From Patescibacteria group bacterium (GTDB lineage Bacteria; Patescibacteriota; Patescibacteriia; SG8-24): a stretch of DNA of 64,000 bases. The DNA is taken from contig JBAYFM010000004.1 of NCBI GenBank assembly GCA_041667185.1, forward strand, positions 9,097 through 73,096, written 5' to 3'. How positions within the stretch are numbered: the first letter of the stretch is position 1; every line of letters begins with the position of its first letter. Shown here one piece after another: positions 8,651 to 58,830 of this stretch. Both the position numbers and the translations under genes were made by a program. The notes beneath the pieces are model-generated. The model was given only the letters and a program-made list of their open reading frames with translations, did not search any database and was not told the DNA's origin.

Positions 8651-8775
8651 GGGAGCAGGAGATGCGGAGTCAGGGAGAGACGGAGATGCGGAGATACGAA
8701 GTGGCGGAGTCAGGGAGTTTGAGAATGCTGGATTCCCGCCTACGCGGGAATGACAAAAAGAGAGTGCGGGAGTGG
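8651..8775. repeat. Intergenic repeat locus C (GGAGTCAGGGAG / GAGATGCGGAG units) with hairpin attcccgcctacgcgggaat
   Basis: gggagcaggagatgcggagtcagggagagacggagatgcggag...ggcggagtcagggagtttgag...agagtgcgggagtgg. Confidence 0.55.
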
Positions 8776-8783
8776 TCGGACCA

Positions 8784-9065
8784 TCAGTCGAGATGTCTAT
8801 AACCTAAACGCGAAAAAGTCACGTCCAGTTGTTTTTTCAAAGCAGCCCGACCATTACCGCCTTTCAGATATCGTTCCCGCCGTGCGGCCTCAATTCTAGT
8901 CAAATAAGCCTCGTAATAGATCAACTTCAGCGGCCGCCGGTCTCTGGTCGATCTCACCATGCCCGTACGATGCTGACACCAACGTCTGCGCAGGTCGTCC
9001 GTCAGACCCACATAAAGCTGCCGATCCTTCACGCTAAATAATACGTATACGTAGACGTAATGCAT
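8784..9065 (-). CDS. Small GIY-YIG (URI-domain, YhbQ-like) nuclease
   Basis: YVYVLFSVKDRQLYVGLTDDLRRRWCQHRTG...KLIYYEAY...RERYLKGGNG: GIY-YIG motifs with the conserved Arg and Glu. Confidence 0.8.
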   Translation of the reverse strand: MHYVYVYVLFSVKDRQLYVGLTDDLRRRWCQHRTGMVRSTRDRRPLKLIYYEAYLTRIEAARRERYLKGGNGRAALKKQLDVTFSRLGYRHLD

Positions 9066-9291
9066 ACCGCGTTTCCTACCATAAGGCCAAAATCAGGTAA
9101 AGCGCCAAGCTGAGCTCGGAAAATACAAAAAACCAGCCGGTGTTACCCGGCTGATTCCCACCACTGAACTCGGCTCGAGCGTTGCAGTGGGCCAGCTCAG
9201 CTGGCCGCACCTCGCTCTGATCGCTCGGTTGTTTCATCAGAGAATGCGAAGCTGAGCTTCGCCTTCATCTTTTGAAACCGAGCTGAGCTCG

Positions 9292-9420
9292 GTGGTGGAG
9301 ATGGGGAGATTTGAATCCCTCGCTCCGACTCGGGCCCCGGGGCGCTGCGCACCGGTCCGCCCGCTAGCGGGCGGACCTCTCGCGCCCGAGTTCAAATCTC
9401 CCCCATAAAACAAAAGCGGA
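9292..9420 (-). repeat. Partial duplicate of the tmRNA 3' end (T-loop, acceptor 3' strand and CCACCA, 23 nt identical) fused to a structured element with the 24-nt perfect palindrome GGTCCGCCCGCTAGCGGGCGGACC
   Basis: Reverse strand reads GGGGGAGAUUUGAACUCGGGCGCGAGAGGUCCGCCCGCUAGCGGGCGGACC...GAGGGAUUCAAAUCUCCCCAUCUCCACCA. A 13-bp outer inverted repeat GGGGAGAUUUGAA/UUCAAAUCUCCCC encloses the palindrome. The 3' 23 nt are identical to the genuine tmRNA end at 9445-9467. Confidence 0.6.
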
Positions 9421-13648: not shown

Positions 13649-13678
13649 AAAACCGCCCTTAACGGGGCGGTTTTTTGA
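13649..13678 (+). terminator. Rho-independent terminator after rplT
   Basis: aaaaaaccgcccttaacggggcggtttttt. Confidence 0.75.
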
Positions 13679-13720
13679 GAGACGGAGTGCTGGAGAGACG
13701 GAGTGCAGGAGTCCGGGGAT
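13676..13720. repeat. Intergenic repeat locus D (GAGACGGAGTGC units)
   Basis: gagagacggagtgctggagagacggagtgcaggagtcc. Confidence 0.55.
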
Positions 13721-13889: not shown

Positions 13890-13950
13890 GAACGGGAGAG
13901 TGCCGGAGTGCTGGAATGCCGGAGGGCTTCGTCACTCCCTGACTCCGTAA
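13890..13950. repeat. Intergenic repeat locus E
   Basis: gggagagtgccggagtgctggaatgccggag...cactccctgactccgta. Confidence 0.5.
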
Positions 13951-15544: not shown

Positions 15545-15611
15545 GGGTCCGTGGTGTAGCCCGGTTAACACGGGCCGCAGTACTGCGGCCAGACCGAGGG
15601 TTCGAATCCGC
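15545..15611 (+). pseudogene. Pseudo-tRNA copy 1, derived from tRNA-Asp. The anticodon arm is replaced by the 18-nt perfect palindrome GGCCGCAGTACTGCGGCC, and the copy is truncated in the T-arm by the GIY-YIG ORF.
   Basis: GGGTCCGTGGTGTAGCCCGGTTAACACG is identical to the 5' half of tRNA-Asp at 15970. The palindrome then occupies 15573-15590, followed by AGACCGAGGGTTCGAATCC. Preceded by the same 25-nt leader (acatccgacaactgatcgcgcgtgg) as the real tRNA-Asp. Confidence 0.65.
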
Positions 15612-15869
15612 ATGATAACCACCCTTTACGTCATCAAAAATACAAAAGGCAACTACTATATCGGAGTCACTGGAGATATTCACCGGAGACTGATCGAACA
15701 CAATTCGGGAACAAGTCTTGCTACCAGAGGAAGGGGTCCGTGGAAACTGGTGTATACGGAAACTTTCCTTTCGCCGCAAGAGGCGAAAAAACGCGAGTAT
15801 CAGATCAAGCAAAAGAAACGGAAATCATACATTGATTGGTTGATAAATGCGCGTGGGTCCGTGGTGTAG
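15612..15869 (+). CDS. Small GIY-YIG (URI-domain, YhbQ-like) nuclease, second copy
   Basis: MITTLYVIKNTKGNYYIGVTGDIHRRLIEHNSG...WKLVYTETF...EAKKREYQIKQ. The ATG starts 2 nt after the T-loop of pseudo-tRNA copy 1, and the stop TAG lies inside the D-arm of pseudo-tRNA copy 2. Confidence 0.75.
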   Translation: MITTLYVIKNTKGNYYIGVTGDIHRRLIEHNSGTSLATRGRGPWKLVYTETFLSPQEAKKREYQIKQKKRKSYIDWLINARGSVV

Positions 15870-15914
15870 CCCGGTTAACACGGGCCGCAGTACTGCGGCC
15901 AGACCGAGGGTTCG
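15856..15914 (+). pseudogene. Pseudo-tRNA copy 2 (5' acceptor, D-arm, palindromic arm, partial T-arm GAGGGTTCGATGCC)
   Basis: Same as copy 1 up to the T-loop; no acceptor 3' strand. Confidence 0.6.
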
Positions 15915-15969
15915 ATGCCAATCATCCTGATCAAAACAGAGGTCGTACATCCGACAACTGATCGCGCGT

Positions 15970-16047
15970 GGGTCCGTGGTGTAGCCCGGTTAACACGTCT
16001 CCCTGTCACGGAGAAGACCGAGGGTTCGAATCCCTTCGGACCCGCCA
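15970..16047 (+). tRNA. tRNA-Asp (anticodon GUC)
   Basis: Acceptor GGGTCCG/CGGACCC. D-arm GTGT-AGCCCGGTTA-ACAC. Anticodon arm TCTCC-CTGTCAC-GGAGA. Variable region AGACC. T-arm GAGGG-TTCGAAT-CCCTT. Discriminator G and encoded CCA. Confidence 0.85.
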
Positions 16048-16048
16048 T

Positions 16049-16081
16049 AAAAGAACTGTTCATGTCGAACGGTTCTTTTAT
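16049..16081. terminator. Hairpin flanked by A- and T-runs (bidirectional terminator-like)
   Basis: aaaagaactgttcatgtcgaacggttctttt. Confidence 0.5.
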
Positions 16082-16091
16082 TTTGCCGCTC

Positions 16092-16170
16092 CTGCCCATG
16101 GTGTAGCCCGGTTAACACGGGCCGCAGTACTGCGGCCAGACCGAGGATTCGAATCCCTTCGGACCCGCCA
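16092..16170 (+). pseudogene. Pseudo-tRNA copy 3: degenerate 5' acceptor strand (CTGCCCA), D-arm, palindromic GGCCGCAGTACTGCGGCC arm, T-arm, acceptor 3' strand CGGACCC and GCCA
   Basis: Direct reading; the acceptor stem cannot form. Confidence 0.6.
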
Positions 16171-18215: not shown

Positions 18216-18270
18216 GCCCGGTTAACACGGGCCGCAGTACTGCGGCCAGACCGAGGGTTCGAATCTCCCG
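18216..18270 (+). pseudogene. Pseudo-tRNA fragment copy 4 (D-loop, palindromic GGCCGCAGTACTGCGGCC arm, T-arm, GCCA; no acceptor stem)
   Basis: gcccggttaacacgggccgcagtactgcggccagaccgagggttcgaatctcccgcca. Confidence 0.55.
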
Positions 18271-18536
18271 CCATGACAGGCGTGGATCCCGCTCACAATA
18301 TCGTAATAACAGAAAGCGGGACCTTCGGACCCACGCACATCATTGACGCGACCCCTGATCTTTGCTTATCTTTAGCAAGCGAAACGGTTCTTTAAAAATT
18401 CATTCATGAGACAGCGCCTCGGGCATAAAGGCCCCCACTCCCGCCGACAGCCGGGTTGTGTCCGGCGCGCTGCCTCATGAAAGAGGAAGCCGCCGGCCGG
18501 AGCGACTCCGGCAGATCCAGAACCCAGGAGATGACG

Positions 18537-25924: not shown

Positions 25925-26030
25925 GTTGCGCGAGAGAGACGGAGTCAGGGAGTTTAAGAGTGCGGGAGTTCAGGAGTGCTGGAGTGCTGAAGGATGCCGG
26001 AACTTCCCCGCTCCTCAACTCCCCCACTTC
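25925..26030. repeat. Intergenic repeat locus F between ftsA and ftsZ
   Basis: gagagacggagtcagggagtttaagagtgcgggagttcaggagtgctggagtgctgaagg... Confidence 0.55.
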
Positions 26031-30683: not shown

Positions 30684-33600
30684 TTAAGGCGTGCTGGTCT
30701 GATAAACATTCTGCGGGGTCAACGTCGGCACTCCAGAGGTGGGTACGGTCATGTCGAAGATGTACCAGTTTCCCTTGGTATTACTCGTACTCACAGGAGC
30801 CGTGATCGAAGTCAGCTGATACGCGCCGTTGTGCCAGCTGATATACATCCGGGAATTGACTTGGGAGAAATAATCGTAGCCATTACCGCTGTAGTCATTC
30901 ACCCAGAATTTCCAGGTCCGCAGCACCGACCGATCATCATTCCACCGATATAACATTGTCTGCGGTGCGTAATCGAAAGTACCACAGGTGTTCCTGCCAT
31001 CTGGATGGTAGCAGGACAGGAAAGCGTTCGGATTAGTATTAGCCACGTCTTGATTGCCCGGACTGCCGTACGACACTGTCGCGCTGCCTGGATCAGGAAC
31101 CCAAAGATACGAATCAAGGAATCCGTTCAGGTCGCCATCCCAGATATATGCGGCCATGGCGTACCCGTAGGAAACCCGGGGCATCAGATAGAATTGCGGC
31201 GCCGACCAACTGTTCGCCGAACCGCTCGGAACGAACATCGAAGCTGCGTGATAACCGTTGACGTTGCGCTCCACGACCGCTCCAGAAAGGCCGGAAACGA
31301 CCAGATTATTGGCGGGCTTGAACGGCAGCACCTTGAGCCGGACGCGGCAGTGCGCCGGCGTGCCAGTGGTCTTGACCACGTCGGCCAGATTATAATTGCC
31401 GCTGGCATCGGTCTGGATCGCGATATTATTCGGCGAACGATCGACGCCGCAGACGCCGCCGAGTTTCTTGCCGTTGGCCCAGATGAAGATCCCTTCGGTC
31501 ACCTTGTCGTCGAGTCCGATCCAGCAATTGGCGCCGTTGCAGGCCGTCCGGACCTGTTCGTTCTTCGTCAGGTCGGCGATGGACGCGAGTCCGCCGTGAT
31601 TGGAGCAGGCCGACTTGGCGGAATCATAGTTCAAACCAGTGCCCGTGACCGTGAGGTCGTTGCAGACACCGCGGTCGGCCAATTGAGTGGACGAACAAGC
31701 CGCGTCGTTCCACGTGCCGTCAGGGTACATCTGCGCGCAATTCTCATTGCCATCAGGGGAGCCGGTCCAGTTATCCGGCTGCTGCGTCGCCCAGTTATTG
31801 AAGTTCAGGGTCGTATCGGCATTGCAGTCGGTGTCGCTGCCGCAAGTCGTGACGCGATCGTAGTTGCAGACCGCGGCCTGAGCCTCGACAGTCGCGCCGA
31901 CGATCGGAGTATTCACGAACATGGCGTCGCGCAGGTTTCCAGAAACAGCCATGCCTTCGCCAGGCCTGGTCCTGACCGTCCAGTTGTCATCGATCAGACT
32001 GTTGCAGTCATCGTCCTTGCCATTACATAGCTCTTTCGGATAGAAGACCAGGTCCATCGAGTTGGCTGGATTGCAATCGGCGACCTTGGCCAGCGTTGTC
32101 TTGGCGATATCCGGTCCGCCCCAGCAACCGGTGGACGGCGGCCAGGCCTGAATTTCGATCTCGCTGCCGGCGCAGGTCGTGATATTGAAAGAGATGTCGT
32201 AACTGCCATCGGCAGCCGTCATGACCTCCTTCAGATACGTAAGATTGCCGCCGTCCTTGCAATAGAGCTTGATCGGCGCATTGCCGACAACGCCCCTGCC
32301 GCCTTCAACCCTGAACACGCCCCTGATCTTCATCAGATTCTCATCAACCACGCCGTTGCAATTGTTGTCGCGGCCGTCGCAGACATCCTCGACACCCTCG
32401 GTCACCGAGAACGAACCGGTCTCGCCGGTGTCGCCGCTCTTCGTGTAGGTCAGGCTGAAATTCGGCCGCGAATCCCATTGGAGAGGTTCGCAATCCTTGG
32501 AGTTCGGCACGCCGTCGTTGTCGGCATCCGGATCGCAGGAATCCTTCAAGACGATCGGGTAGGACTGCGGCGGAGCGACGGGGTAGGGATTCGGGAACGG
32601 CCAGGAATTCGGCAGCTCCAACAAGTAGGCCTGCGGATTGAACAGGTTCCAGACGCCCTGCGGCGGCCGCACGTCACTATCTGTGTTGACCGTCGAGGAA
32701 TCGTTGCAGGCTTTGGATGACCGGTCGACGCAGGTCCGTTTGCAGGTCTTGGCGTCGCAGCTAGCCTGGCCGGTCTGGCGTCCGAAGACCTGGTCCTGCG
32801 GCCTGGTGCTGACGCAGATCCAGTTATTGATCCCGGTCTCGCCTTCGCACTCTTCCGGTCCGGGCGGATCATGCTCGAAATTCTCCAGGATGTTGTTGCC
32901 GCAGAAGCCGCCGGTGACGGTGCCGAGCTTGCAGGCCGACGTGCAGTAAGTGCAGTCCTGGCCATAGGCCGGACGGCAGCGCTGGCCGTTCAAAGCTCCC
33001 CCGTCGCACTGTTCGCCGCGCGCGGCGCTCACGAAACCGTCGCCGCAGACAGCGTTCTTGCAGTTGACGCAACCGTCGGCGGCATCGCTGTTGCCATCAT
33101 CACATTGTTCGCCGGTGTTCTTCACGCCATCACCGCAGCTGCCGGCTTCGGTGCAGCTCCAGTCGCCCCAGCGGCAGGCCAGCTGATCATCCTCCGTACC
33201 CGGCGCGTTGGCGTAGCAGGTGCGCCGCCAGCGCTTGTCATGATCGTTGGCATCGCAAAACTTGACGCAGGACCAATCCTGCCCGTTCGCGCCGAGGCCG
33301 CGGCAGTCGGCGTTGGTCGAACAGCCGGGCTGCGAAGACAGCTGCGTGCAGGTCGTCTGGTCCGCACCGGGCGGACAGCACAATTGCGGGTAATTCTGGA
33401 CTCCGCCGTCGCAGACCTCGCCAGAACCATTGATCTTGCTGTCGCCGCAGCGCGGACCCAGCTCTTTGCAATCCCAGGAACACGATGGCGCACCATTGAA
33501 ATTATATTGGCCGTTATCAGCGCCCAAATCACAGGCTTCGGAAGCCTGTTTCGCGCCGTCGCCGCAGCGCGGACCCAGACCGTTACAAGTCGAGTTGCAC

Positions 33601-36600
33601 TGGCCGTAAGTCCCGTTGAGCGGACCGTCATCGCAGAACTCGCCGGACTGTTTGATGCCGTCGCCGCAGGAGCCGACCGCGCACGCCCCCGGAGCCTGCC
33701 ATCTGCAATCCAAGCCGCAAGCTTTCCGCTGGACTCCCGGTCGCCCGCCGGATACGCAATCAATGATGGCCGGAGCCTGCCCTGGTTCGCACTCCTCCGG
33801 ATTGGCGCCGCCGATCTGCACCACGCCATCGCCGCAATAGCCCTGGGAGCCGATCTCCGTCATGGCTTGGCAGCGCGGGCCAAGATCGTAGTTCACGCCG
33901 CTCATGAGGAGCGCGCCGCCGCCCTGGGGCTGGCAGCCGGCTTCAGGAGACCAGGCGCACTCCGACTTGGCGACGCATTCGTTCTGCGTGGTGTTGTCGG
34001 GATCGCTGCCGTCGCGCACCTCGAAACAGGTCGAGCCAGCCCAGTACATCTTCGCGTTGGCGGCGCACTTGCCGCCGAACCAATTACAGAAACCGTCCTG
34101 CGCCAGACAGGTGTTCTGTTCGGCATAGGCCGTGCACAGATAATCCTGCCCGGTCTCGAAATCGGCGTAGAGACGGAAATCCTGGCCGCCGACGCTCTGG
34201 AACTCATAGACGTGCGACTCGGCCGGACAGCGATAGACCTTCTCCGCGGCATTCCAGCAAGTGGCGGGATCGAACTTGCGCTTGTCGGCGCAAACGCCGT
34301 TCTCGTAGACGCAGATCTCGGCGTGCTGATCGCAGGCGGCCTTGTTCGGATACTGCGAACAGTAACCGGAACACTGCATGAGCTTGTTGACCGGATCGGC
34401 CACGAGACCGAAACCGAGTTCGCTGGCGAGGACCGACGTCCACGAGCCCCAGCTGCTGATCGTGCGGCCGGGCAGGAAAGTCCCGGACTCGAGCTTGGGA
34501 TAGCCATCGCTCTTTTTGGCGACCAGCGCGTTCCGGAGCTGGACCAGATCGGTCCAGCGCTTCAAGTCGCGGATCAATTTATCCTTGTGAGCGCTGCAAT
34601 AGAGGCCGGCGCGCAGCGGGTCGAAGCCGCCGTTCTTGACGCGGCAATCGACGTCGGCCGAACACGGGATCGGCTTGCCATTGTCGAGCGCCTGCATCCC
34701 CTCCTGGGCGGCATCCACGCAGTAGCCTTTGTTACTGACGTTCAGATTGAAATTTATCTTGTTCAGGATCTGGTCGAAGATGGCCTGAGTCTCCGCCGCC
34801 GCCCCGTCGCTGTAAGACAGGATGTTGACGTTGGTGTACAACCGGCGCTGCTGCTCGGCGGCGATGTCAACCTTGGCCACTGCCAGGCTATAGACCGTCC
34901 GCCCCTCGCGCAAAGCCGGATAGCCATCCACCGTGGTCGCTGTCGGATTGCCGCTGAAGCCCTGTTTCTGGTACCAATCGCTGATGCTCAAATGATCCAG
35001 ATTGGACATGATGCGCAGACCGATGGCGTTCTTTTCCCAGGCTGTGGGCTTATCCGGGAAATTCGGGTCCAGCGGCCCCAAAGCGCGGTCGAACGTGAAC
35101 AGATACTCCCGCTGGATATCGCGGCCAGGCTGCAACGAGGCGTACTTGGACTCGTTCAGGGCCGGTAAGAAACCGACGGCCGGGGTGCGCGGAGCGCTGC
35201 TCGCGGCGCCAGCTTGAGCCAGGCGCCGGCTGGCGCTGCTCAGGGCCGAAGACGTCCGCGAAAGGACTTTAACGCCGCTTTCGTTCAGCGCCGGCAGATC
35301 ATCACCCTCGTCACCGCCCGCGGCGCCATCCCGACAATAATAGAAAGAAAGGTTCGTCGTGGGATCATAGAACGGGAACCACACCTGTTCGTCGCCGAGA
35401 CAGGACAAGCTCGCTCCCCTGGCGGCATCCCAGGGCAAACCATGAGCCTGAACGTCGGTGCATTTCCGCCAGGACGGCCAGGGATTCCGGCACAGCATGA
35501 CCGTGACCCTGGATTCGGCGCTGAGCGTCGAAGGCAGGCCCTGATCCAAGATCTCAGCGGCCACTCGGACCGACTGATCGCCATTGGCCGGGAACTTTTC
35601 GACCGGCGTCTTCCGGACCGAGACCCGGGCGGTTTCGGTTTCCTCCGGACGCGATCTGACGCAATCGGACGCCGCGGCGCAATTCTTGCAATCCGGACTA
35701 TTATCCGCCTCGCCGATCTCGCAGAAACCGTTTCCGACCGCGGGACCGACGACCGTCGGCGCGACCACGATCGGCGAATCGTCAGGCTGAACGTCCCAGA
35801 ACCATTTGAAACGATAATCCGGAGTGCTGTTCAGACTGGCCAGATCACCGCCGCGCGCCGGCTTGGCTTCGGCGACGAAATTCTGGTCGCCATCCAGCGA
35901 ATCCTCAGGATCAGGATATACGGCCGCGTTCGTGTCCTCGGCGGTCGTGAACAGGTGCGAGACCGGAGTCAGTACCACGGAATCGATCTTGCAGACAGCG
36001 CCAGCGGTCTTGAATTCCGACGGGCTCGAATCGTAAAGCGGCACGCCGCCCGCCGTCCGCAGCACCTCGCCGGCCGGACGCAAGCCGTCGGCGCCGCGCA
36101 AAAGTATCGTGTGCGTGACATTGGGCAGATAAGAACCGGCGGACATGAAGGTCACCAGCCGCGGCTTGACGACGAGGTCGCCGGGAACACGGCAATAACC
36201 GGCATCAGCAGCTCGAACCGGCGAGACAGCGCGTTCCAAGAGGTCGAAGAGGAAAGAGATCAACCGCGCCGGAGCCTGCCACCAGGCACTCGACCGGACC
36301 TCCGGCCGGAGAGACGTTTCGCCCCAGGGCCGCAGCTGTCCGTTGACCGGCTGCCGGTCGGCGCAGGTATCGCCTTCGCCGCAATCGGCGTCCGTCGAGC
36401 ACTGCTGGCCGGGTTTCTTGACGCAATATCTGACGGGCCGGCAGGAACCGCCGCAATCAGCGTTGGCGACGCAGGCAAGTCCGTTATTGGAACAGACGCT
36501 GGGCGCCTCCGCGGGCCGCGCAGCGCAAACGACGCCGAAAGAGCAGTCAGAATTGATCTGACAGCGCTCGCCGGTATCGGCGCAATATTTGGCCTGGATA

Positions 36601-39600
36601 CAGGAACCGCCGCAGCCGGCGTCGTTCGTGCAGGTCTTGCCTGGATCATTGCTGCAGACCGAACGGCACGCTCCGTCAACGGCCGGTTCGTAAACTCCCA
36701 CGTTGTCCCGAACGGAATTGATATCGACAGCTTCGCTGAAAGCGACTTTGACGGCCGTGTTGCGGCACACGTCTCCTTGTCCGGATAATGGGTAGACGAA
36801 CTCCGGCACGGGCGCCGGCGCGCAACAGCCGTTCGCGGAGCAGCCCAGCGGCGGCGGAGCCGGATCCTCTGTAGCCATCTCGCCCAGCGACCGGCAATAG
36901 GTCTGAGGCTCGCTCTGTTCCAGACAGGAGCAGGTCAGGCTGACCGTGGCTTTGCCGACGCGCGTCGAATCGGAACCGAATTCGGTCAAGCCGGCCAGGA
37001 CGTCATCCGACGGCCGAGCCACCGGCGGACCGGAGTAGACGCCGGCGCGGATGATCTGGAAAGGATCGATCCTGCCGTCGCCGCCGACCGGACCCGGATC
37101 GCAACCGGCCGCCTCGCCAGCGCCGACCACGCCATCGCGGCAGAACGACATTTCAGAATATTGCGCGGAAGCGCCTTCAAGCAGACAGGCTGCGGAACAG
37201 CCGTCTTGATTGGCCAGATTCCCGTCGTCGCACTGTTCGCCGGCCTCCACGATCCCGTTGCGGCAGCACCCCGTGCCGGTCGCTGCGGCGCAGGCTTTCG
37301 TGCCGGCGCGCAGACAAGTCTTCGGATCGCAACCGGCGGCCAGAATCGCATCGCTGGCGCCGGCCCCGCTGGCCGTATCACAGCCGATATCTTCGCCGGC
37401 TTCGGTCCGACCGTTGCCGCAATAATTGACGCAGGACGGCATGACTCCCTCGCTATCAGGCGCGACATCCAGACAAGATGGCAGGCTGCCCTCGCGCAAA
37501 CAATTATTGCTGCAGCCGTCGCCGTTCGCGCGATTGCCATCGTCGCAAGCCTCGCCGTCGGCCAGCTGACCGTCGCCACAGGACGACTTGCCGGCCGCAG
37601 CGCCGAGCATGACGCAGCCGACGGTCGAGCCGTTGGGTTCCTGGCAGCCGGTATCGAAGACGGCGCGGACGGCGGAACAACCCGCGTCGCCGAGTTTGCA
37701 GCCCGCCGGTTCGGTCTCGATGATCGCCTCGCAATTTTCGCCGTTTTCCAACTGACCGTTGCCGCAGCACTGCGCATCATCAAGCGCCCCGCATTTGAGC
37801 GTGCCCAAAACTACGCACCGGCTGGCGTCGCACCCGCGCGTCGCCGGACTACCGACGGCCGCATCGCAAGCCGGGTCTTCCCAAGGCAGGTCAACCACGC
37901 CGTTGCCGCACTGCGGCATCTTGTTCTGAGACCCCGTATGCCGGCAATCGGAAGTGCAGCCGGCCATCATCTCCATGTTCGTATCGAGACGGACATCAGG
38001 AGCCGCCGGCGGATCAATGGATCCGGAGTTCGTGTAAAAACCATCGATGACGTTCTTGTCAGTCTTAGTCCAAAGCCAACTGTAAGCACTCGCCCGCAGC
38101 TGCTGGCCAAGATCATCGCATTCGTCAGGTTTGGCAAAAGGCACCGCCTCGAAATCGGCGCGCTGGCCGACGTATTGCAGCAGCACCGCGCTCGGCCTGA
38201 CATCGGCATGATGGACGGCGCAAGGAGTGGGGCTGGTATTGGTCTTGAACTGCCAGGTGAAATAATCGCCGTCGTTAAGCTTCGAAAGCGGCACGCCGCT
38301 CCGACTCTTGATGAAACCGCTGCCGGCCGGCCGCTCGTCTTTTTTCGGATCCCAATATTGGCTCCGCAACCGGACGAGATAATTGGTGTTGCTCGCCAGG
38401 CCGGCCGAACCGATAGCGAATTCGAAGCGCCGGCCGCTCAGCTGACCGACCGAATCCACGACCTTGTTCACGGTCACGGTCTCATGGAAATATGGCGGCT
38501 GGCAGCTGATGTTGCGGCATTTGAGGACTTCGACATTGCCCGAAAAACTGGCTTCATCCATCGCGACGTTGAATTGCGCCCAGATCGCGGCGTTGCTGCA
38601 GGCGCTGCCGCAATCGGGAGCGTGAGCCGTCACCTGCGGATCAGCGAATTTGACGCTCACTTCGGCCTGGCCGGAGGTCTGCTGGCCGCCGCCCGGCGGC
38701 GCGAACGCGGCCGCGAGACCGACCGGATCCTCGGTCTCCGCCTTCGCGCGCACGGCCTGATAACACTGATGCTTGTCGGGCTGCAGGGACAGGATGTTCT
38801 CATCGGAGCTCCAGTTGATCTGGTAGATGCCCGGAGCGCACCGGAGGCGATTGCAGCTGATGTCGACCGGGAGGGCGGCGAAGCCGGCCGGATTCGCCGG
38901 CGCCGGAGCCTGGTTCGGAGCCGCCGGCGGCAGCCATTCCGGATTATCGACCTCGTCGCGATCGATCAGATATTTGAAAGGATTGACGATGACCTCGGAA
39001 AGCACGCAAGGAGCATCGGTTGCGGCGGTCTTGAATTCCAGAACGTAGTCGCCGCCCTGGTTGAGATCGTAATCACCGTCGAGATCAACGCCGTAGATAT
39101 CCTTGATGCCGTTCTCGGAATCGCCGGACAAAGTGACCCGGTACCAGGTCTTCTTGGCCAGCAAAGCCCCGGCACCCTTGGGCGCGGCGACCAGGGACCT
39201 CGACCCCGGCGGCTGGGGCGGCAGGTTGGAATTCTCAAAGGTCACGTCGAACTGGCTGGTCACGTTGACCGCGGCAGCGCAGGCCGGAGCGATGCCATCG
39301 CCGCAGGTCTCGATCCGGTATTTCCCGGCGAAGGAATCGACCCGCATGAAATTATTGAAAGCCAGCTGGATGACCGTGCCAGTGCAGATATCCTGGGAGC
39401 CGGCGGACGGCGCCGGACTCTTGAAATCAACGGCGTATTTGGCCTGGCAGGTCTGTTCATGGCAAGCGCAGCGCAGGACCTGCGGCATCTCCGGCAGCAC
39501 TTCGGTGCTGAACCGCCAACCGTAGGCACTGGTCGGCTTGGGAGCTTCGCAGGCAGCCTTGGTCGCCCGGCAGGAACCGTTGGGGCAGCAGACCGGCTTA

Positions 39601-42323
39601 TCCGGCTGGTCCTTTTGGCACAGATTGTCGCCGCCGATCTTGGTGCAATCCTGGACCTTGAACGGTACGGCGTTCGAACTCCACTGGTTGTTGGCTTCGA
39701 CGTAAACAGGACCAGTCTCCGCCTCCGGGGTCGCGGGATCAGGACGGGCGGCTGGCACGTAAGCCGAGACCTCCCGGTTCGACCAGGAAACGCCGGCATA
39801 AGCCCGGACCGCCGTGTTGGCCAAAAGGTTATTCTTTGAAAAATTGATGGAGTATTCGGTCAGACCGCTCTTGGTGCCGAAACGCTCGCCCAAGATCTTG
39901 ACCTTGGTGGTGCCGGCCGGACCGTTATCCGGCTCGATGCTGCAGATGCCCGGCTTCGACGGATCGGAATTGATGGTGAACAGGATCGCTTTGCTCTCCT
40001 TGCCATCGCCGGAGCGCTGGACCGACAGGTCATACTGCTCCAACCGAACCGGGCAAGTACCCTTGTCCGAGCACTCGAAAGCCGTCGGGACTTTGACCAC
40101 GATGTAGTTGCTGGTCCAGGTCGCTTTGCAGGGCGGAGCGGGCGGAACGCCGATGGCGACATCGCTGGCGTTGGATTTGGATACGAAACGCACCACGCCG
40201 CTCGAACCGAAGCCGCGGCCTACTATAGTAATATAGGCATCAACCGGACCGGCTGGCGGCAACACCTCGGTGATGGCCGGGGCTTCCGCTTTGTCGCCGG
40301 CGGAAACCAGGAAGATCGGATCATTCGTTGTCCACACGCCGGCAGCCTCGTTTCCGATCCTGACTCGGACAGGATACGGCCCGTCCTTGAGGGTCGGCGT
40401 AATGGCGGTGATCTTGTCGCCGGTCGACGCCCAGCCCTGGCTCGCGACGTTGGCCGCGCTGGTGCTGAGGAAAACCTGGCTCTCCCCCATTTCCCCGCCG
40501 AAATTGACGCCGCTGATGTCGAATCGAGTGCCGATCGGGCCGAAATTCGGTTTGACGAAACAAATGCCCGGCTGCGGCGGCAAAGCGGTGTCAACATCGA
40601 AAGTTCCGACCCAGCCGCGATCATTAGCGGTCGTATCCGCGAGTCCGGACAACGTCCTGATCTCGATGGGGCCGTCTTTGGCGTTCGCCGGAACCTTGAC
40701 CGTGGCCTGGTTGGGTTCGACGCCGTTGGTCCACGAATCTTCGGGCGCGGCGCACAGATCGGCGACCGCGTCGTCATTCGGATCATTCACGTCGCCAAGG
40801 AAAATGACGCGTCCGGCCGGCGGTCCGAACATCTTGCCGGAGACCGTCACGAGCGTCCCGGGAGCGCCGGCCGCCGGAGAGACCGACTCGATCATGGGCA
40901 GATCGACGCATTTGCCGGCGACACAGGCGCCGGAAGCGCAATCAGCATCGCCGGTGCAAACCGCACCGCTGCAACGGCCGCAAGCCGAGGCTGCGCCGCA
41001 ATCCACCCCATCCTCATCCGCGTCCTTGGCGCCATTGCAGCAATGCGTCGGCAGGACCTTGAAATTAGAAACGACCGGGGCGCTGGCGTTGCCGACGACG
41101 TCCTCGGCGGACGCGGCTGCGCCGTAAAGTGATCCGGCCGCCAACTTGGCCAGGTCAATCTGCACGGTGTCGATTGAAAAAGGATTCGCGAGCGCGGCGT
41201 TCATCTTCACGGTCTCGCCGATGATGGCGTCCGCCACCGGAGCGCCGGGAGCGCCGTCCTCGCCGACGGCCACGATCCCGAAAGTCAGGCTGACGGCAAG
41301 CTGGTTATCCTGGGCGATAGCCTGAATGTTCAGGGGCGCACTGCAGATTCCTGGCGGCGACTTCGGCATCGTCACGCGGACGTTCGGCGGCTCGAAATCA
41401 ACCCAATCGCCGATCGCGACGGCGCGGCGGCAAAGCGTCCGGGCTTGCGCGGTCGTATCCTCCGGCTTGGCTCCGGGCGCCGCGCGGCAATCGAGCGGCT
41501 TGGCGTCCGGCGTTTTCAGGACATTGGTCTCAAAACCGGTCGCGCCGCCGTCAGCTTCGATGAGATACCAGACATCGCCCTTGAAACATGGCTGCCCGTT
41601 ATCGCACTTCGAGTCCGGAACGAACTCGATGGTCTTGCCGACCACGGTCGAGGTCCCGGCATAAGCTTCGGTCTTGGGCTTGCAAGCGGCGATATCGAAC
41701 GGAAGACTCTCGGCGCCGTCGCCCGCGCCCTGGATCCGCGGATTGCACTCCAAGACGCGGAAATGGCCGGTGACGCTCGCTGCGTCAATGCCATCATTGA
41801 AAGACATTTTGAGTTTGGAATTCTTGGACCAGCCGCGCTGATCATTCGGACCAGCCGGGGCCACGCCCTGAACCCTAAAAGTGGCGCCGCCGCCGAAGCC
41901 GTTGCCGCCGCCAGCGCCGCCCCCGCCGCCATCTCCCCCGCCGCCGACCTCGCCGCCCGCGGCGCCGATGATGAAACGCGCGATGGCGAAAGCCGACATG
42001 ATGATCACGAGGCCGATGGCCGCGCTGACCATGGTCTTCTTCGCTTTGGAGATCTGTTCCTCATTGCCCTGGGAGGTCATCCAAAGGAAGCCGGCGTAGA
42101 GGATCAGGCCGACGGCGATGATCCCGAGAAAACCCAGGAAGTAGCTGATGATGCGGGCAACGGTCGTGCGGACATCGGTCGTCGTGAGACCGATCGCGGT
42201 CGCGTAATCCAACCCCAGATCAACCTGGGCGGAGACGGCGCGCGCCGACAACAAAACGGCGAAACCGGCGATGGCGGCCAATCCGGACCTGAAGATGTTG
42301 TTTTTAGCGGTGCGCATAACCAT
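30684..42323 (-). CDS. Giant (3879 aa) secreted cell-surface protein. N-terminal module is signal peptide plus two TM helices (TrbC/VirB2-pilin-like topology). Passenger is adhesin-like: Gly-rich linker, Myxococcus-type Cys-rich repeats, MopE-like CxxDNNCNG motifs, a TSP3 motif, a C-type-lectin-like WND motif and an aromatic-rich C-terminus.
   Basis: Single uninterrupted ORF. N-terminus ...AVSAQVDLGLDYATAIGLTTTDVRTT...LILYAGFLWMTSQGNEEQISKAKK...IGLVIIMSAFAI. Repeats such as CGDGQLADGEACDDGNRANGDGCSNNC, CRNGIVEAGEQCDDGNLANQDGCSAAC and CGDGVKNTGEQCDDGNSDAADGC. CDGRDNNCNGVVDE and CNGKDDDCNSLIDD. DPDADNDGVPNSKDCEP. QPDNW...NENCAQMYPDGTWNDAAC...GVCN. Confidence 0.8.
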   Translation of the reverse strand: MVMRTAKNNIFRSGLAAIAGFAVLLSARAVSAQVDLGLDYATAIGLTTTDVRTTVARIISYFLGFLGIIAVGLILYAGFLWMTSQGNEEQISKAKKTMVSAAIGLVIIMSAFAIARFIIGAAGGEVGGGGDGGGGGAGGGNGFGGGATFRVQGVAPAGPNDQRGWSKNSKLKMSFNDGIDAASVTGHFRVLECNPRIQGAGDGAESLPFDIAACKPKTEAYAGTSTVVGKTIEFVPDSKCDNGQPCFKGDVWYLIEADGGATGFETNVLKTPDAKPLDCRAAPGAKPEDTTAQARTLCRRAVAIGDWVDFEPPNVRVTMPKSPPGICSAPLNIQAIAQDNQLAVSLTFGIVAVGEDGAPGAPVADAIIGETVKMNAALANPFSIDTVQIDLAKLAAGSLYGAAASAEDVVGNASAPVVSNFKVLPTHCCNGAKDADEDGVDCGAASACGRCSGAVCTGDADCASGACVAGKCVDLPMIESVSPAAGAPGTLVTVSGKMFGPPAGRVIFLGDVNDPNDDAVADLCAAPEDSWTNGVEPNQATVKVPANAKDGPIEIRTLSGLADTTANDRGWVGTFDVDTALPPQPGICFVKPNFGPIGTRFDISGVNFGGEMGESQVFLSTSAANVASQGWASTGDKITAITPTLKDGPYPVRVRIGNEAAGVWTTNDPIFLVSAGDKAEAPAITEVLPPAGPVDAYITIVGRGFGSSGVVRFVSKSNASDVAIGVPPAPPCKATWTSNYIVVKVPTAFECSDKGTCPVRLEQYDLSVQRSGDGKESKAILFTINSDPSKPGICSIEPDNGPAGTTKVKILGERFGTKSGLTEYSINFSKNNLLANTAVRAYAGVSWSNREVSAYVPAARPDPATPEAETGPVYVEANNQWSSNAVPFKVQDCTKIGGDNLCQKDQPDKPVCCPNGSCRATKAACEAPKPTSAYGWRFSTEVLPEMPQVLRCACHEQTCQAKYAVDFKSPAPSAGSQDICTGTVIQLAFNNFMRVDSFAGKYRIETCGDGIAPACAAAVNVTSQFDVTFENSNLPPQPPGSRSLVAAPKGAGALLAKKTWYRVTLSGDSENGIKDIYGVDLDGDYDLNQGGDYVLEFKTAATDAPCVLSEVIVNPFKYLIDRDEVDNPEWLPPAAPNQAPAPANPAGFAALPVDISCNRLRCAPGIYQINWSSDENILSLQPDKHQCYQAVRAKAETEDPVGLAAAFAPPGGGQQTSGQAEVSVKFADPQVTAHAPDCGSACSNAAIWAQFNVAMDEASFSGNVEVLKCRNISCQPPYFHETVTVNKVVDSVGQLSGRRFEFAIGSAGLASNTNYLVRLRSQYWDPKKDERPAGSGFIKSRSGVPLSKLNDGDYFTWQFKTNTSPTPCAVHHADVRPSAVLLQYVGQRADFEAVPFAKPDECDDLGQQLRASAYSWLWTKTDKNVIDGFYTNSGSIDPPAAPDVRLDTNMEMMAGCTSDCRHTGSQNKMPQCGNGVVDLPWEDPACDAAVGSPATRGCDASRCVVLGTLKCGALDDAQCCGNGQLENGENCEAIIETEPAGCKLGDAGCSAVRAVFDTGCQEPNGSTVGCVMLGAAAGKSSCGDGQLADGEACDDGNRANGDGCSNNCLREGSLPSCLDVAPDSEGVMPSCVNYCGNGRTEAGEDIGCDTASGAGASDAILAAGCDPKTCLRAGTKACAAATGTGCCRNGIVEAGEQCDDGNLANQDGCSAACLLEGASAQYSEMSFCRDGVVGAGEAAGCDPGPVGGDGRIDPFQIIRAGVYSGPPVARPSDDVLAGLTEFGSDSTRVGKATVSLTCSCLEQSEPQTYCRSLGEMATEDPAPPPLGCSANGCCAPAPVPEFVYPLSGQGDVCRNTAVKVAFSEAVDINSVRDNVGVYEPAVDGACRSVCSNDPGKTCTNDAGCGGSCIQAKYCADTGERCQINSDCSFGVVCAARPAEAPSVCSNNGLACVANADCGGSCRPVRYCVKKPGQQCSTDADCGEGDTCADRQPVNGQLRPWGETSLRPEVRSSAWWQAPARLISFLFDLLERAVSPVRAADAGYCRVPGDLVVKPRLVTFMSAGSYLPNVTHTILLRGADGLRPAGEVLRTAGGVPLYDSSPSEFKTAGAVCKIDSVVLTPVSHLFTTAEDTNAAVYPDPEDSLDGDQNFVAEAKPARGGDLASLNSTPDYRFKWFWDVQPDDSPIVVAPTVVGPAVGNGFCEIGEADNSPDCKNCAAASDCVRSRPEETETARVSVRKTPVEKFPANGDQSVRVAAEILDQGLPSTLSAESRVTVMLCRNPWPSWRKCTDVQAHGLPWDAARGASLSCLGDEQVWFPFYDPTTNLSFYYCRDGAAGGDEGDDLPALNESGVKVLSRTSSALSSASRRLAQAGAASSAPRTPAVGFLPALNESKYASLQPGRDIQREYLFTFDRALGPLDPNFPDKPTAWEKNAIGLRIMSNLDHLSISDWYQKQGFSGNPTATTVDGYPALREGRTVYSLAVAKVDIAAEQQRRLYTNVNILSYSDGAAAETQAIFDQILNKINFNLNVSNKGYCVDAAQEGMQALDNGKPIPCSADVDCRVKNGGFDPLRAGLYCSAHKDKLIRDLKRWTDLVQLRNALVAKKSDGYPKLESGTFLPGRTISSWGSWTSVLASELGFGLVADPVNKLMQCSGYCSQYPNKAACDQHAEICVYENGVCADKRKFDPATCWNAAEKVYRCPAESHVYEFQSVGGQDFRLYADFETGQDYLCTAYAEQNTCLAQDGFCNWFGGKCAANAKMYWAGSTCFEVRDGSDPDNTTQNECVAKSECAWSPEAGCQPQGGGALLMSGVNYDLGPRCQAMTEIGSQGYCGDGVVQIGGANPEECEPGQAPAIIDCVSGGRPGVQRKACGLDCRWQAPGACAVGSCGDGIKQSGEFCDDGPLNGTYGQCNSTCNGLGPRCGDGAKQASEACDLGADNGQYNFNGAPSCSWDCKELGPRCGDSKINGSGEVCDGGVQNYPQLCCPPGADQTTCTQLSSQPGCSTNADCRGLGANGQDWSCVKFCDANDHDKRWRRTCYANAPGTEDDQLACRWGDWSCTEAGSCGDGVKNTGEQCDDGNSDAADGCVNCKNAVCGDGFVSAARGEQCDGGALNGQRCRPAYGQDCTYCTSACKLGTVTGGFCGNNILENFEHDPPGPEECEGETGINNWICVSTRPQDQVFGRQTGQASCDAKTCKRTCVDRSSKACNDSSTVNTDSDVRPPQGVWNLFNPQAYLLELPNSWPFPNPYPVAPPQSYPIVLKDSCDPDADNDGVPNSKDCEPLQWDSRPNFSLTYTKSGDTGETGSFSVTEGVEDVCDGRDNNCNGVVDENLMKIRGVFRVEGGRGVVGNAPIKLYCKDGGNLTYLKEVMTAADGSYDISFNITTCAGSEIEIQAWPPSTGCWGGPDIAKTTLAKVADCNPANSMDLVFYPKELCNGKDDDCNSLIDDNWTVRTRPGEGMAVSGNLRDAMFVNTPIVGATVEAQAAVCNYDRVTTCGSDTDCNADTTLNFNNWATQQPDNWTGSPDGNENCAQMYPDGTWNDAACSSTQLADRGVCNDLTVTGTGLNYDSAKSACSNHGGLASIADLTKNEQVRTACNGANCWIGLDDKVTEGIFIWANGKKLGGVCGVDRSPNNIAIQTDASGNYNLADVVKTTGTPAHCRVRLKVLPFKPANNLVVSGLSGAVVERNVNGYHAASMFVPSGSANSWSAPQFYLMPRVSYGYAMAAYIWDGDLNGFLDSYLWVPDPGSATVSYGSPGNQDVANTNPNAFLSCYHPDGRNTCGTFDYAPQTMLYRWNDDRSVLRTWKFWVNDYSGNGYDYFSQVNSRMYISWHNGAYQLTSITAPVSTSNTKGNWYIFDMTVPTSGVPTLTPQNVYQTSTP

Positions 42324-58210: not shown

Positions 58211-58306
58211 AGCGCTATTACTTTACCCGCCAAAAACCATTTTGACAATATGGTCCGATATATTATAATGGCACAGCCTTAAGCTTGTCGTTTTAGCTTA
58301 AAATAG

Positions 58307-58390
58307 GCCGCGGTGGCGGAATGGCAGACGCACGCGACTCAAAATCGCGCGGGGCAACTCATGAGGGTTCGACTCCCTCCCGCGGCACCA
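58307..58390 (+). tRNA. tRNA-Leu (anticodon CAA), long variable arm
   Basis: GCCGCGGTGGCGGAATGGCAGACGCACGCGACTCAAAATCGCGCGGGGCAACTCATGAGGGTTCGACTCCCTCCCGCGGCACCA. Acceptor GCCGCGG/CCGCGGC; anticodon loop CUCAAAA; T-arm GAGGG-TTCGACT-CCCTC; encoded CCA. Confidence 0.85.
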
Positions 58391-58391
58391 T

Positions 58392-58425
58392 CTAAAAATC
58401 GTCTGGGCTTTTACCCAGGCGATTT
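58392..58425 (+). terminator. Terminator hairpin after tRNA-Leu
   Basis: ctaaaaatcgtctgggcttttacccaggcgatttttag. Confidence 0.55.
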
Positions 58426-58559
58426 TTAGCATCCGTGTCTACGAGCGGGAGGGAGTCGAAGGGTACGGCGAGGCTTGCCTAGTATGGCAAGCCGAGACGA
58501 CCCGGGCGGCGAAGGAGGCGGCGCACATGAGGACTTTTCCAGCGCCGCCGGGTGAGCCG

Positions 58560-58766
58560 GACTCCCTCCCGCGGCACCATCCCCCGTCGCTCGAGACAAG
58601 CTCGAGCTATGGGGGATCGTTTTATAAGAGCACCGAACCAACCCCCTCGAAGCTCGCCGGAAGCGAGCGGAGTGGGGTCCCGCGGCACCATCCCCCGTCG
58701 CTCGAGACAAGCTCGAGCTATGAGGGATCGTTTTATCCGAGTACCAAGCCAGCCCCTCGAAGCTCC
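58560..58766 (+). repeat. Two tandem ~95-nt direct repeats, each starting with a copy of the tRNA-Leu 3' end (T-stem 3' strand, CCGCGGCACCA) followed by a near-palindromic hairpin ATCCCCC-GTCG-CTCGAG-ACAAG-CTCGAG-CTAT-GGGGGAT. An inverted fragment (gcgggagggagtc) lies at 58444-58457.
   Basis: Unit 1 58560-58657 and unit 2 58677-58766 align with few mismatches. Both begin with the last ~20 nt of the tRNA-Leu gene. Confidence 0.6.
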
Positions 58767-58830
58767 ATGCAGCGGAAACGAATCAAGACCGTCTCTCGTG
58801 AACAAAAAAAGAGCCCCTCAGACGAAAGGC

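Follow-up and report, generated by a model that had tools for sequence, protein, structure and literature searches.

A probable tRNA-linked-repeat-type array downstream of tRNA-Leu(CAA) in a Patescibacteria genome

The sequence analysed here is a stretch of 64,000 nucleotides (nt) from a Patescibacteria group bacterium (contig JBAYFM010000004.1 of assembly GCA_041667185.1, positions 9,097 to 73,096), called the window below, and our subject is a group of repeats located in it directly downstream of the gene for transfer RNA (tRNA)-Leu(CAA). We regard this locus, with a probability of roughly 0.6, as an array of the tRNA-linked-repeat (TLR) type composed of one intact folded unit and decaying duplicates. 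The intact unit, referred to as the module, is 135 nt long (58445-58579, plus strand) and begins 55 nt after the tRNA gene. In the proposed structure it would fold into three helices (P1, H1 and H2) between two terminator-like hairpins (T0 and T1a), with P1 formed by an "anti-T-arm" segment and a duplicate of the final 20 nt of the tRNA. Similarly to the TLR/RtT and RrA/B/F elements of Escherichia coli, the unit would probably be co-transcribed with the tRNA when RNA polymerase reads through T0, and the transcript would probably end at T1a. Because the 3' end of the unit imitates that of the tRNA, the transcript would probably be trimmed to a defined small RNA.

This reading is carried by the repeats themselves, by a fold conserved with covariation, by strong sequence constraint, and by a family of modules at several loci whose arms match the local tRNA. 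In the searchable literature, TLR architecture is described only in Escherichia coli and other enterobacteria, and it is now found at tRNA-Leu, tRNA-Met and transfer-messenger RNA (tmRNA) genes of Patescibacteria, which provides a second, very distant sequence set for comparative work on tRNA-linked repeats.

Fold, constraint and family of the module

The 5' arm of P1 contains, in inverted form, the T-loop, the 3' strand of the T-stem and 4 nt of the acceptor. Thirteen base pairs (bp) are formed between 58445-58457 and 58560-58572, leaving GAA at 58458-58460 unpaired; the direct copy F1 supplies the 3' arm plus a GGCACCA tail, and reaches 22 nt when the next TC is counted. The interior between the inverted arm and F1 is ~100 nt long and G+C-rich. 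Covariation analysis and covariance model construction were based on four full-length modules, because the module of L119 (loci collected for comparison carry L numbers) and that of the tmRNA gene are misaligned by MAFFT. Across the four, 92.6% of cells are paired, the values being 100% for the 13 bp of P1 and 95% for H1, in which 7 of 15 pairs show compensatory changes. Pairs changed on both sides number 13, compared with 6.0 +/- 1.7 in shuffles (0/500 reach 13) and with at most 4 in slid-partner controls. The covariance model recovers the copy of the sister lineage described below (57.8 bits, the hit being shortened by a contig end), matches L119 at 18.6 bits (E 0.03), and finds nothing beyond these two in 407 kb. 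Covariation from so few sequences is suggestive, not decisive, and it is consistent with the following measurement of constraint.

A sister lineage (L095 and L142), whose ParA agrees at 94% at the protein level, has tRNA-Leu, T0, the inverted arm, a 100-nt interior, a 20-nt copy of the tRNA end and an ordinary terminator in this order. Over the 115 nt compared, its module is 96.5% identical to that of the window (111/115, 4 differences), and both F1 (20/20) and tRNA-Leu are 100% identical. The corresponding values are 85.7% for all positions and 66.9% for third codon positions of parA, 81.3% for the open reading frame (ORF) of a membrane protein, 74% for T0, the hairpin of which is kept by paired changes, and 40% for the 15-nt linker. 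At the third-position rate, the probability of 4 or fewer differences in 115 nt is ~4e-15. Between the tRNA, which is identical, and the module, which is conserved, stand T0 and the linker with their low identity; this makes it unlikely that the block was recently transferred as a whole, and the simplest reading appears to be that the module is under purifying selection. The covarying stems, together with a constraint well above that of neighbouring genes, argue that the elements are selected and are not mere duplication debris. In a first-pass annotation of the window, the repeats had been tentatively interpreted as integration or excision scars of a mobile element family or as footprints of a recombinase or nuclease, with a structured non-coding RNA showing conserved covariation named as the contrary case; for the segment from the tRNA to F1, the compensatory stem changes and the identity to the sister lineage place the module on the side of the latter.

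The family was compiled by scanning all tRNAs in the loci collected, and metagenomes were scanned with an exact 20-mer. In the same genome, the tRNA-Met gene just beyond the window end (L005) is followed by two tandem units, and the tmRNA gene in the window by a module with an inverted segment of 16 nt (9388-9403) and a direct copy of 23 nt (9293-9315). Other modules are found in at least five further Patescibacteria contigs, at tRNA-Met in L091/L138 and L110, and at tRNA-Leu in L095/L142, L119, L122 (two units), L110 and L020; those of the tmRNA gene, L122, L110 and L020 were assigned by architecture and shared motifs, not by model score. The locus is thus part of a recurrent class of tRNA-3'-end duplications in this genome, as the first-pass annotation had proposed, and the pattern is indeed shared with the tmRNA locus; the tRNA-Asp locus, which had been grouped with them, has another arrangement of pseudo-tRNA copies.

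All of these modules share one layout. A terminator hairpin stands behind the gene; after 10-17 nt comes an inverted arm with ..GAA at its end, then two hairpins separated by a junction, and finally a G(T/C)GAG motif in front of a direct copy of the gene's 3' end. In every case the inverted arm corresponds to the reverse complement of the T-loop of the local gene, beginning at nt 54, and an extension of 2 to 9 nt adds some or all of the T-stem 3' strand. Of the 8 Patescibacteria modules, 7 have a direct copy that begins at T-loop nt 57, and exact 3'-end copies amount to 20 nt for F1, 13 nt for the second copy F2, 20 nt for tRNA-Met and 23 nt for the tmRNA. Where the T-stem of tRNA-Met varies between genomes (GTGGG/CCCAC versus GCGGG/CCCGC), both arms differ accordingly. 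Interior identity among the Leu module and the Met modules of L005 and L091 is 55-63%, and that of the tandem L005 pair 77%; for H2, the respective values are 17-27% and 78%. The loop GCCTAGTATGGC, the junction CCCGGGCNNCGAAGGAG and the right end GGGTGAG are kept despite this divergence, and motifs related to G(T/C)GAG precede the 3'-end copy in all modules. This level of interior identity with conserved junctions points to an old, constrained structure and not to a recent burst. The module motif had 0 matches in viral contigs.

Several other observations were made at these loci. In L005 (1-600), a 41-nt pseudo-tRNA-Met fragment ranging from the anticodon loop to CCA lies between the two units, and the last tRNA-end copy of this array is degenerate. 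At the tmRNA locus (9290-9412, minus strand), the terminator, the module and the 23-nt tmRNA 3'-end copy follow one another, and the module shares the motif GGTGCGCAGCG.CCCGG with L119. Past this module lie several GAGCTCAGCTC-type palindromes and a GIY-YIG ORF of 93 amino acids (aa; 8784-9065, minus strand). In the junction of the Leu module (58508-58529) and in its L005 and L091 equivalents, AAGGAG(G) is followed after 7-9 nt by ATG or TTG, and no conserved ORF lies behind it in these three.

The 111-nt repeats and the layout of the locus

The tandem repeats after tRNA-Leu(CAA) are real: they are detected by Tandem Repeats Finder (Table 1), and the locus is 100% identical over 700 nt between an ENA assembly (L001/L005) and a JGI assembly (L002) that come from different samples and pipelines, although the window itself may come from one of the two. 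It is true that contigs built from k-mers (Logan) break within the region, at 58342 and 58693, as expected at repeats; but the two units differ at 9% of positions and are therefore resolvable by short reads. With this and the agreement of the two assemblies, a repeat number created by assembly is hardly credible. The two direct repeats had been described as ~95 nt long, while their period is 111 nt. Each had been said to start with the tRNA end, which is correct for the 20 nt of the first copy, and only 13 nt are kept in the second. The inverted tRNA fragment had also been recognized, at 58444-58457; it actually covers 58445-58460. The CTCGAG-ACAAG-CTCGAG hairpin does follow each tRNA-end copy (58580-58616 and 58691-58727), and what had been described as a palindrome is best understood as one of two terminator-like hairpins, the second in an arrangement of dual terminators.

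In unit 1, the 20-nt tRNA end and the CTCGAG hairpin are followed, after a spacer, by a hairpin of 36 nt (M2), which starts with module-like ..CTCGAAG and ends with GCGAGCGGAGTGGGG, similarly to the right end of the L119 and tmRNA modules. M2 begins with TCGAAG and ends with GCGAG..GGAGTG(A)GGG, as full modules do, and is probably a short second module with an internal deletion. Unit 2 has a shorter tRNA end, a mismatch in its hairpin, and the first 13 nt only of the module-like part. Altogether, the array has an intact unit, a truncated one and a stub. The 111-nt units are probably a decaying, lineage-specific duplicate, which would have arisen by unequal recombination or slippage between repeated tRNA ends, and these hairpin-bearing units may well be non-functional. 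The notion of a relic, which fails for the module, is suitable for them. The CTCGAG hairpin core occurs twice in the window, both times here (chance expectation 0.01), and no copies of this hairpin or of the GGGATCGTTTTAT motif were found elsewhere in the window.

Orthologous sites were located by using ParA and the membrane ORF as anchors. The best ParA relatives belong to Patescibacteria or Candidatus Uhrbacteria and show 72-83% identity; the GTDB representatives are all more distant (ParA identity 64% or less), with tRNA-Leu/ParA synteny retained in five loci. In L091 (ParA 79%) and L096/97 (83%) only the tRNA, a terminator and the next gene are present, and in L088 and L089 the orthologous site carries other hairpins. 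In the sister lineage, the position of T1a is taken by an unrelated simple terminator, and the CTCGAG units and the whole block after F1 are absent (L142). The 111-nt repeats are accordingly specific to the window lineage, whereas the segment from T0 to F1 is shared. As a separate feature, L088, L095 and L096/L097 have a conserved leader, ~90 nt long and structured, that directly adjoins tRNA-Leu (in L095, its 5' pseudo-copy) on the 5' side; it contains the motifs GGCGAGCG, GTGAGGG, GAACCCGAAC and GGAAGCGAGC, and gave no Rfam match.

The features of the locus are listed in Table 1. The region contains 3 promoter-like sites, compared with a shuffle mean of 0.2. T0, having A5 and T5 flanks, is possibly bidirectional, and the scanner called it as a terminator on the minus strand. 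The TTTT run of T1a lies 3 nt past the stem, and the simple terminator scanner made no call there. CCCCTCGAAGCTC tails are found at 58642-58655 and 58753-58765. The locus is flanked by genes for RelA/SpoT, ParB and ParA on one side and by small membrane ORFs on the other.

Table 1. Features found at the tRNA-Leu(CAA) locus, in window coordinates
Feature	Position	Strand	Remarks
Promoter-like site TTGACA-16-TATAAT, 5' of tRNA-Leu	58242-58269	+	12/12 consensus matches
tRNA-Leu(CAA), CCA encoded	58307-58390	+	ARAGORN; Rfam tRNA 56.8 bits; 100% identical in sister lineage
T0, first terminator-like hairpin, 16-bp stem, A5 and T5 flanks	58392-58429		-23.9 kcal/mol, z -8.65
P1 5' arm, reverse complement of tRNA nt 54-69	58445-58460	+	16 nt, 100% complementary
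H1, hairpin with conserved apical GCC-TAGTAT-GGC	58461-58503	+	Loop identical in Leu and Met modules
Conserved junction GGGCGGCGAAGGAG with GGA / Shine-Dalgarno-like motif inside	58504-58517	+	79-100% identical among modules
H2, variable hairpin	58518-58549	+	Hairpin at equivalent place in every module
Conserved right-end motif GGGTGAGCCG	58550-58559	+	86% identical between Leu and Met modules
F1, exact copy of tRNA-Leu nt 57-76 (GACTCCCTCCCGCGGCACCA)	58560-58579	+	20 nt
T1a, second terminator-like hairpin (CTCGAG palindrome), then TCG, TTTT	58580-58623	+	Hairpin proper 58580-58616: -27.7 kcal/mol, z -5.48
M2, short second module (CCCCCTC-GAA-hairpin-GGAGTGGGG)	58642-58677	+	-23 kcal/mol, z -3.2
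F2, copy of tRNA-Leu 3' end (TCCCGCGGCACCA)	58678-58690	+	13 nt
T1b, degenerate copy of T1a, then TCG, TTTT	58691-58734	+	Hairpin proper 58691-58727: -20.8 kcal/mol; G>A change breaks one pair
Third-unit stub (CCCCTCGAAGCTC), end of tandem homology	58753-58765	+
111-nt tandem repeat	58567-58765	+	Tandem Repeats Finder: 1.8 copies, 91% matches, score 340

Comparison with known systems and weighing of explanations

TLRs have reportedly been studied by Egan and Landy in 1978 and by Rudd in 1999. They were first described in E. coli in 1978 and are stated to have "no known function"; Stenum et al. count 22 members of the E. coli family, distributed over ten loci that have one to five each, and its hallmark is a 3'-terminal part of 18-19 bp identical to the upstream tRNA or ribosomal RNA (rRNA) (PMC8144298). 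Three members are located between dual terminators and are transcribed by read-through (PMC8144298). In the E. coli tyrT-tyrV locus (L139), the units of 178 bp each end in the last 19 nt of tRNA-Tyr, and they score 133-138 bits with the Rfam RtT model RF00391 (gathering score 45 bits). The Rfam consensus has a closing helix formed by a 5' GGGGAAGG segment with the 3' tRNA-end repeat. In reverse, this segment is complementary to the acceptor plus the 3' strand of the T-stem, and the helix is the same as P1 in the present locus.

The likeness of the present elements to TLRs includes the position directly 3' of a tRNA gene on the same strand (here also at tRNA-Met and the tmRNA gene), the last 18-20 nt being identical to the upstream tRNA 3' end and starting in the T-loop, and a closing helix in which the tRNA-end repeat pairs with a 5' segment, this segment being complementary to the acceptor and the 3' strand of the T-stem. 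In both cases several loci exist per genome, each matched to its own upstream gene, with 1-5 tandem units; the numbers here are one intact and one truncated unit plus a stub at Leu, two units at Met (L005) and one at the tmRNA gene. The order of motifs is also similar (GCGAG, hairpin, ACCCG..GGCGAAG, hairpin, TGAG, repeat), and a dubious small ORF lies within the repeats, in E. coli at rttR/tpr downstream of tyrT-tyrV. Differences are that the direct copy starts at nt 57 here and at nt 58 there, that the inverted arm here spans the whole T-loop, that the unit is ~135 nt plus a hairpin versus 178 nt, and that the host phylum is very distant. The small RNAs RrA, RrB and RrF of E. coli rrn operons, themselves members of the TLR family (PMC8144298), resemble the module in lying between two terminators, in a 3' end that copies the upstream stable RNA, and in GGA-containing motifs; they differ in following 5S rRNA and in binding Hfq and CsrA experimentally, whereas the module is known from sequence alone. 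We also note that the GGA motif of the junction is reminiscent of the CsrA-binding motifs in these RNAs.

Several points weigh against assigning the locus to the TLR type. The Rfam RtT model gave no match at the gathering score, nor at E <= 10 on 701 nt or 161 nt of the locus, and the Patescibacteria covariance model aligned with E. coli units at full length with 11-12 bits only; these scores leave homology to TLRs unproven, and the likeness could be convergent. The covariation is derived from four full-length sequences. That in P1 could come from templated copying of the target and not from selection, and the conservation of the hairpins could be a property at the DNA level. The inverted arms of L119 and L122 are shorter (6-9 bp), so that a long P1 is not universal. 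Read-through transcription past T0, trimming of the transcript and any cellular role, as well as unequal recombination as the source of the 111-nt units, are what we infer. We describe the array as TLR-like in architecture and probable mode of action, and as not recognized as a member of the Rfam family. Searches with Rfam, at gathering and permissive thresholds, detected only tRNA and tmRNA in the window, the locus and seven related loci, with no ribozyme families such as hammerhead, twister, pistol and hatchet among them.

A different, rather unlikely explanation is that mobile cassettes driven by an integrase or a homing endonuclease were serially inserted in the T-loop of tRNA-Leu, each replacement 3' end pushing the resident end downstream, and that the array consists of the scars, with remnants of the elements between the 3'-end fragments. 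Remnants of the attachment (att) sites of integrative elements at tRNA genes, such as those of P4-type elements in leuX (tRNA-Leu(CAA)), are direct repeats of the 3' end starting from the T-loop, and may form tandem arrays. The same tRNA species and the direct repeats are in common with our locus, and the junction at T-loop nt 56|57 is precise. In about 12 of 40 loci of the 20-mer metagenome scan, the 20-mer lies 100-800 nt 3' of a tRNA-Leu having a different 3' end, and such displaced resident fragments are seen, for example, in L100, L112/113/133 (three generations), L117, L121/134, L122 and L125; in the last, a LAGLIDADG ORF separates the new tRNA from the old fragment. In L123, L122, L131 and the tRNA-Asp locus of the window, resident tRNAs are split by GIY-YIG ORFs that lie beside a complete replacement tRNA, another GIY-YIG ORF follows the tmRNA module, and L091 and L096/97 have an empty orthologous tRNA-Leu site. 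SegB, a GIY-YIG enzyme of phage, cleaves tRNA genes at the motif RAWTSGAAC and causes tandem amplification (PMC13096335), and we read this motif as the reverse complement of the T-loop consensus. Enzymes of this type (PMC2330249, PMC13096335) share with the present loci GIY-YIG genes beside tRNA genes, a motif that by our reading matches the T-loop, and tandem amplification. The ORFs here differ in being 85-93 aa long and essentially a catalytic domain, with the Pfam GIY-YIG match (PF01541) covering residues 4-72 of 93 and 5-71 of 85. As had been noted before, no GIY-YIG gene is present at tRNA-Leu, while in this genome and its relatives small ones do adjoin tRNA or tmRNA fragments; the tRNA-Asp and tmRNA loci of the window and L122, L123, L125 and L131 have an endonuclease ORF among such fragments, and tRNA-Leu has none. 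No integrase was matched among the ORFs near the three loci (Pfam: sigma factor, SmpB, glycosyltransferase-like and unknowns); a pooled Pfam scan of 68 ORFs of the window lists the top 25 families, and an integrase elsewhere in the window is possible. What speaks against scars is the DNA between the direct tRNA-3'-end repeats, which is a conserved module shared with the sister lineage: 110-190 nt of structured sequence, strongly constrained and covarying, unlike a decaying remnant. Moreover, F1 is identical to the functional tRNA and is not a diverged resident copy, and the module copies within one genome are only ~60% identical, which is at odds with a recent spread. At tRNA-Leu, the evidence favours a conserved element with decaying duplicates over serial integration scars.

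It is improbable that the locus arose merely by decay of an old tandem duplication of tRNA-Leu and its flanks, leaving functionless pseudogene remnants with no mobile element involved. Partial 5' tRNA-Leu copies do occur upstream of the gene in L089 and L095, the GGAAGCGAGC motif in the linker before F2 also ends the leaders upstream of tRNA-Leu in L088, L095 and L096, and the second unit is degenerate; but such decay leaves unexplained the inverted arm, the gene-matched modules at tRNA-Met and the tmRNA gene, and the 96.5% conservation of the module. Hardly any weight is given to a coding function, in which the repeat region would specify a small repetitive protein like the tpr ORF annotated inside the E. 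coli tyrT array. ORFs of 108-146 aa span the repeats and AAGGAGG stands 8 nt upstream of the ATG at 58527, but these ORFs, which occur on either strand, reflect the DNA repeat, they have no Pfam match, and the repeat region is missing from the sister lineage; when the sequence of this genome's tRNA-Met module is read from the corresponding motif, the frame reaches a stop after 7 codons. The first-pass annotation had rightly doubted that the long ORFs are genes. A conjecture to which we attach little probability is that the module is a non-coding partner of the tiny stand-alone GIY-YIG nucleases (85-93 aa) encoded beside tRNA and tmRNA genes, in which case its 5' arm, complementary to the local T-arm strand, could target T-loop cutting or protect against it; if true, it would explain the fixed nt 56|57 junction and the arms re-templated at each new tRNA. 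In a less far-reaching form of this conjecture, TLR-type elements would be an ancient, selected class of tRNA-operon RNA ranging from enterobacteria to Patescibacteria. A historical or functional link between T-loop cutting and the arrays is possible, and it is testable because the GIY-YIG and LAGLIDADG cassettes split tRNAs at or near the same T-loop position.

Apart from these explanations, a number of known mechanisms were considered and rejected. Genes or features required for IS200/IS605-type hairpin transposition, IS110 bridge RNA, homing spacers of CRISPR-associated transposons, TnpB/IscB guide RNAs and class C group II introns are lacking. Fold-back priming at a T-loop break does not fit arms that are 102 nt apart and not abutting, a primer-binding-site origin of retroviral type does not fit an inverted arm made of nt 54-69 and not of the 3' terminus, and an RNase P minihelix substrate does not fit 7 nt unpaired at the 3' end rather than 4 nt.

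Nuclease-associated insertions, pseudo-tRNAs and other features

In L123 (701-1400), L122 (9561-10330) and L131 (10801-11400), a GIY-YIG ORF and a complete tRNA lie inside an older copy of the same tRNA, and in L125 (12690-13542) a LAGLIDADG ORF and a complete tRNA are arranged likewise. These insertions leave the old 5' and 3' tRNA halves on either side, and each combination of endonuclease and tRNA looks like a self-replacing cassette.

In the window, four tRNA-Asp-like pseudo-tRNAs are found at 15545-16170 and 18216-18332, in which a perfect palindrome, GGCCGCAGTACTGCGGCC, takes the place of the anticodon arm. In one of them, a GIY-YIG ORF of 85 aa (15612-15869, plus strand) interrupts the T-loop; a second (16099-16170) follows the real tRNA-Asp and is enclosed by two terminators, and one has a 56-nt insert in the T-arm with TCCCGC/GCGGGA ends (18266-18321). 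G+C-rich palindromic inserts of 19-90 nt, located in the D-loop, anticodon arm or T-arm of pseudo-tRNAs, are found at the same place of the window (18266-18321) and in L122, L123, L131 and L089, which suggests a miniature hairpin element landing in tRNA loops.

Elsewhere in the window, short intergenic arrays with a period of 8 or 16 nt (GGAGTGCA, GAGAGACGGAGTGCAG, CTCCCTGACTCCGTC) are found at six places (554-589, 2775-2852, 8658-8709, 13677-13712, 13898-13924 and 25948-25989), and a single ORF of 3879 aa occupies 30684-42323 on the minus strand.

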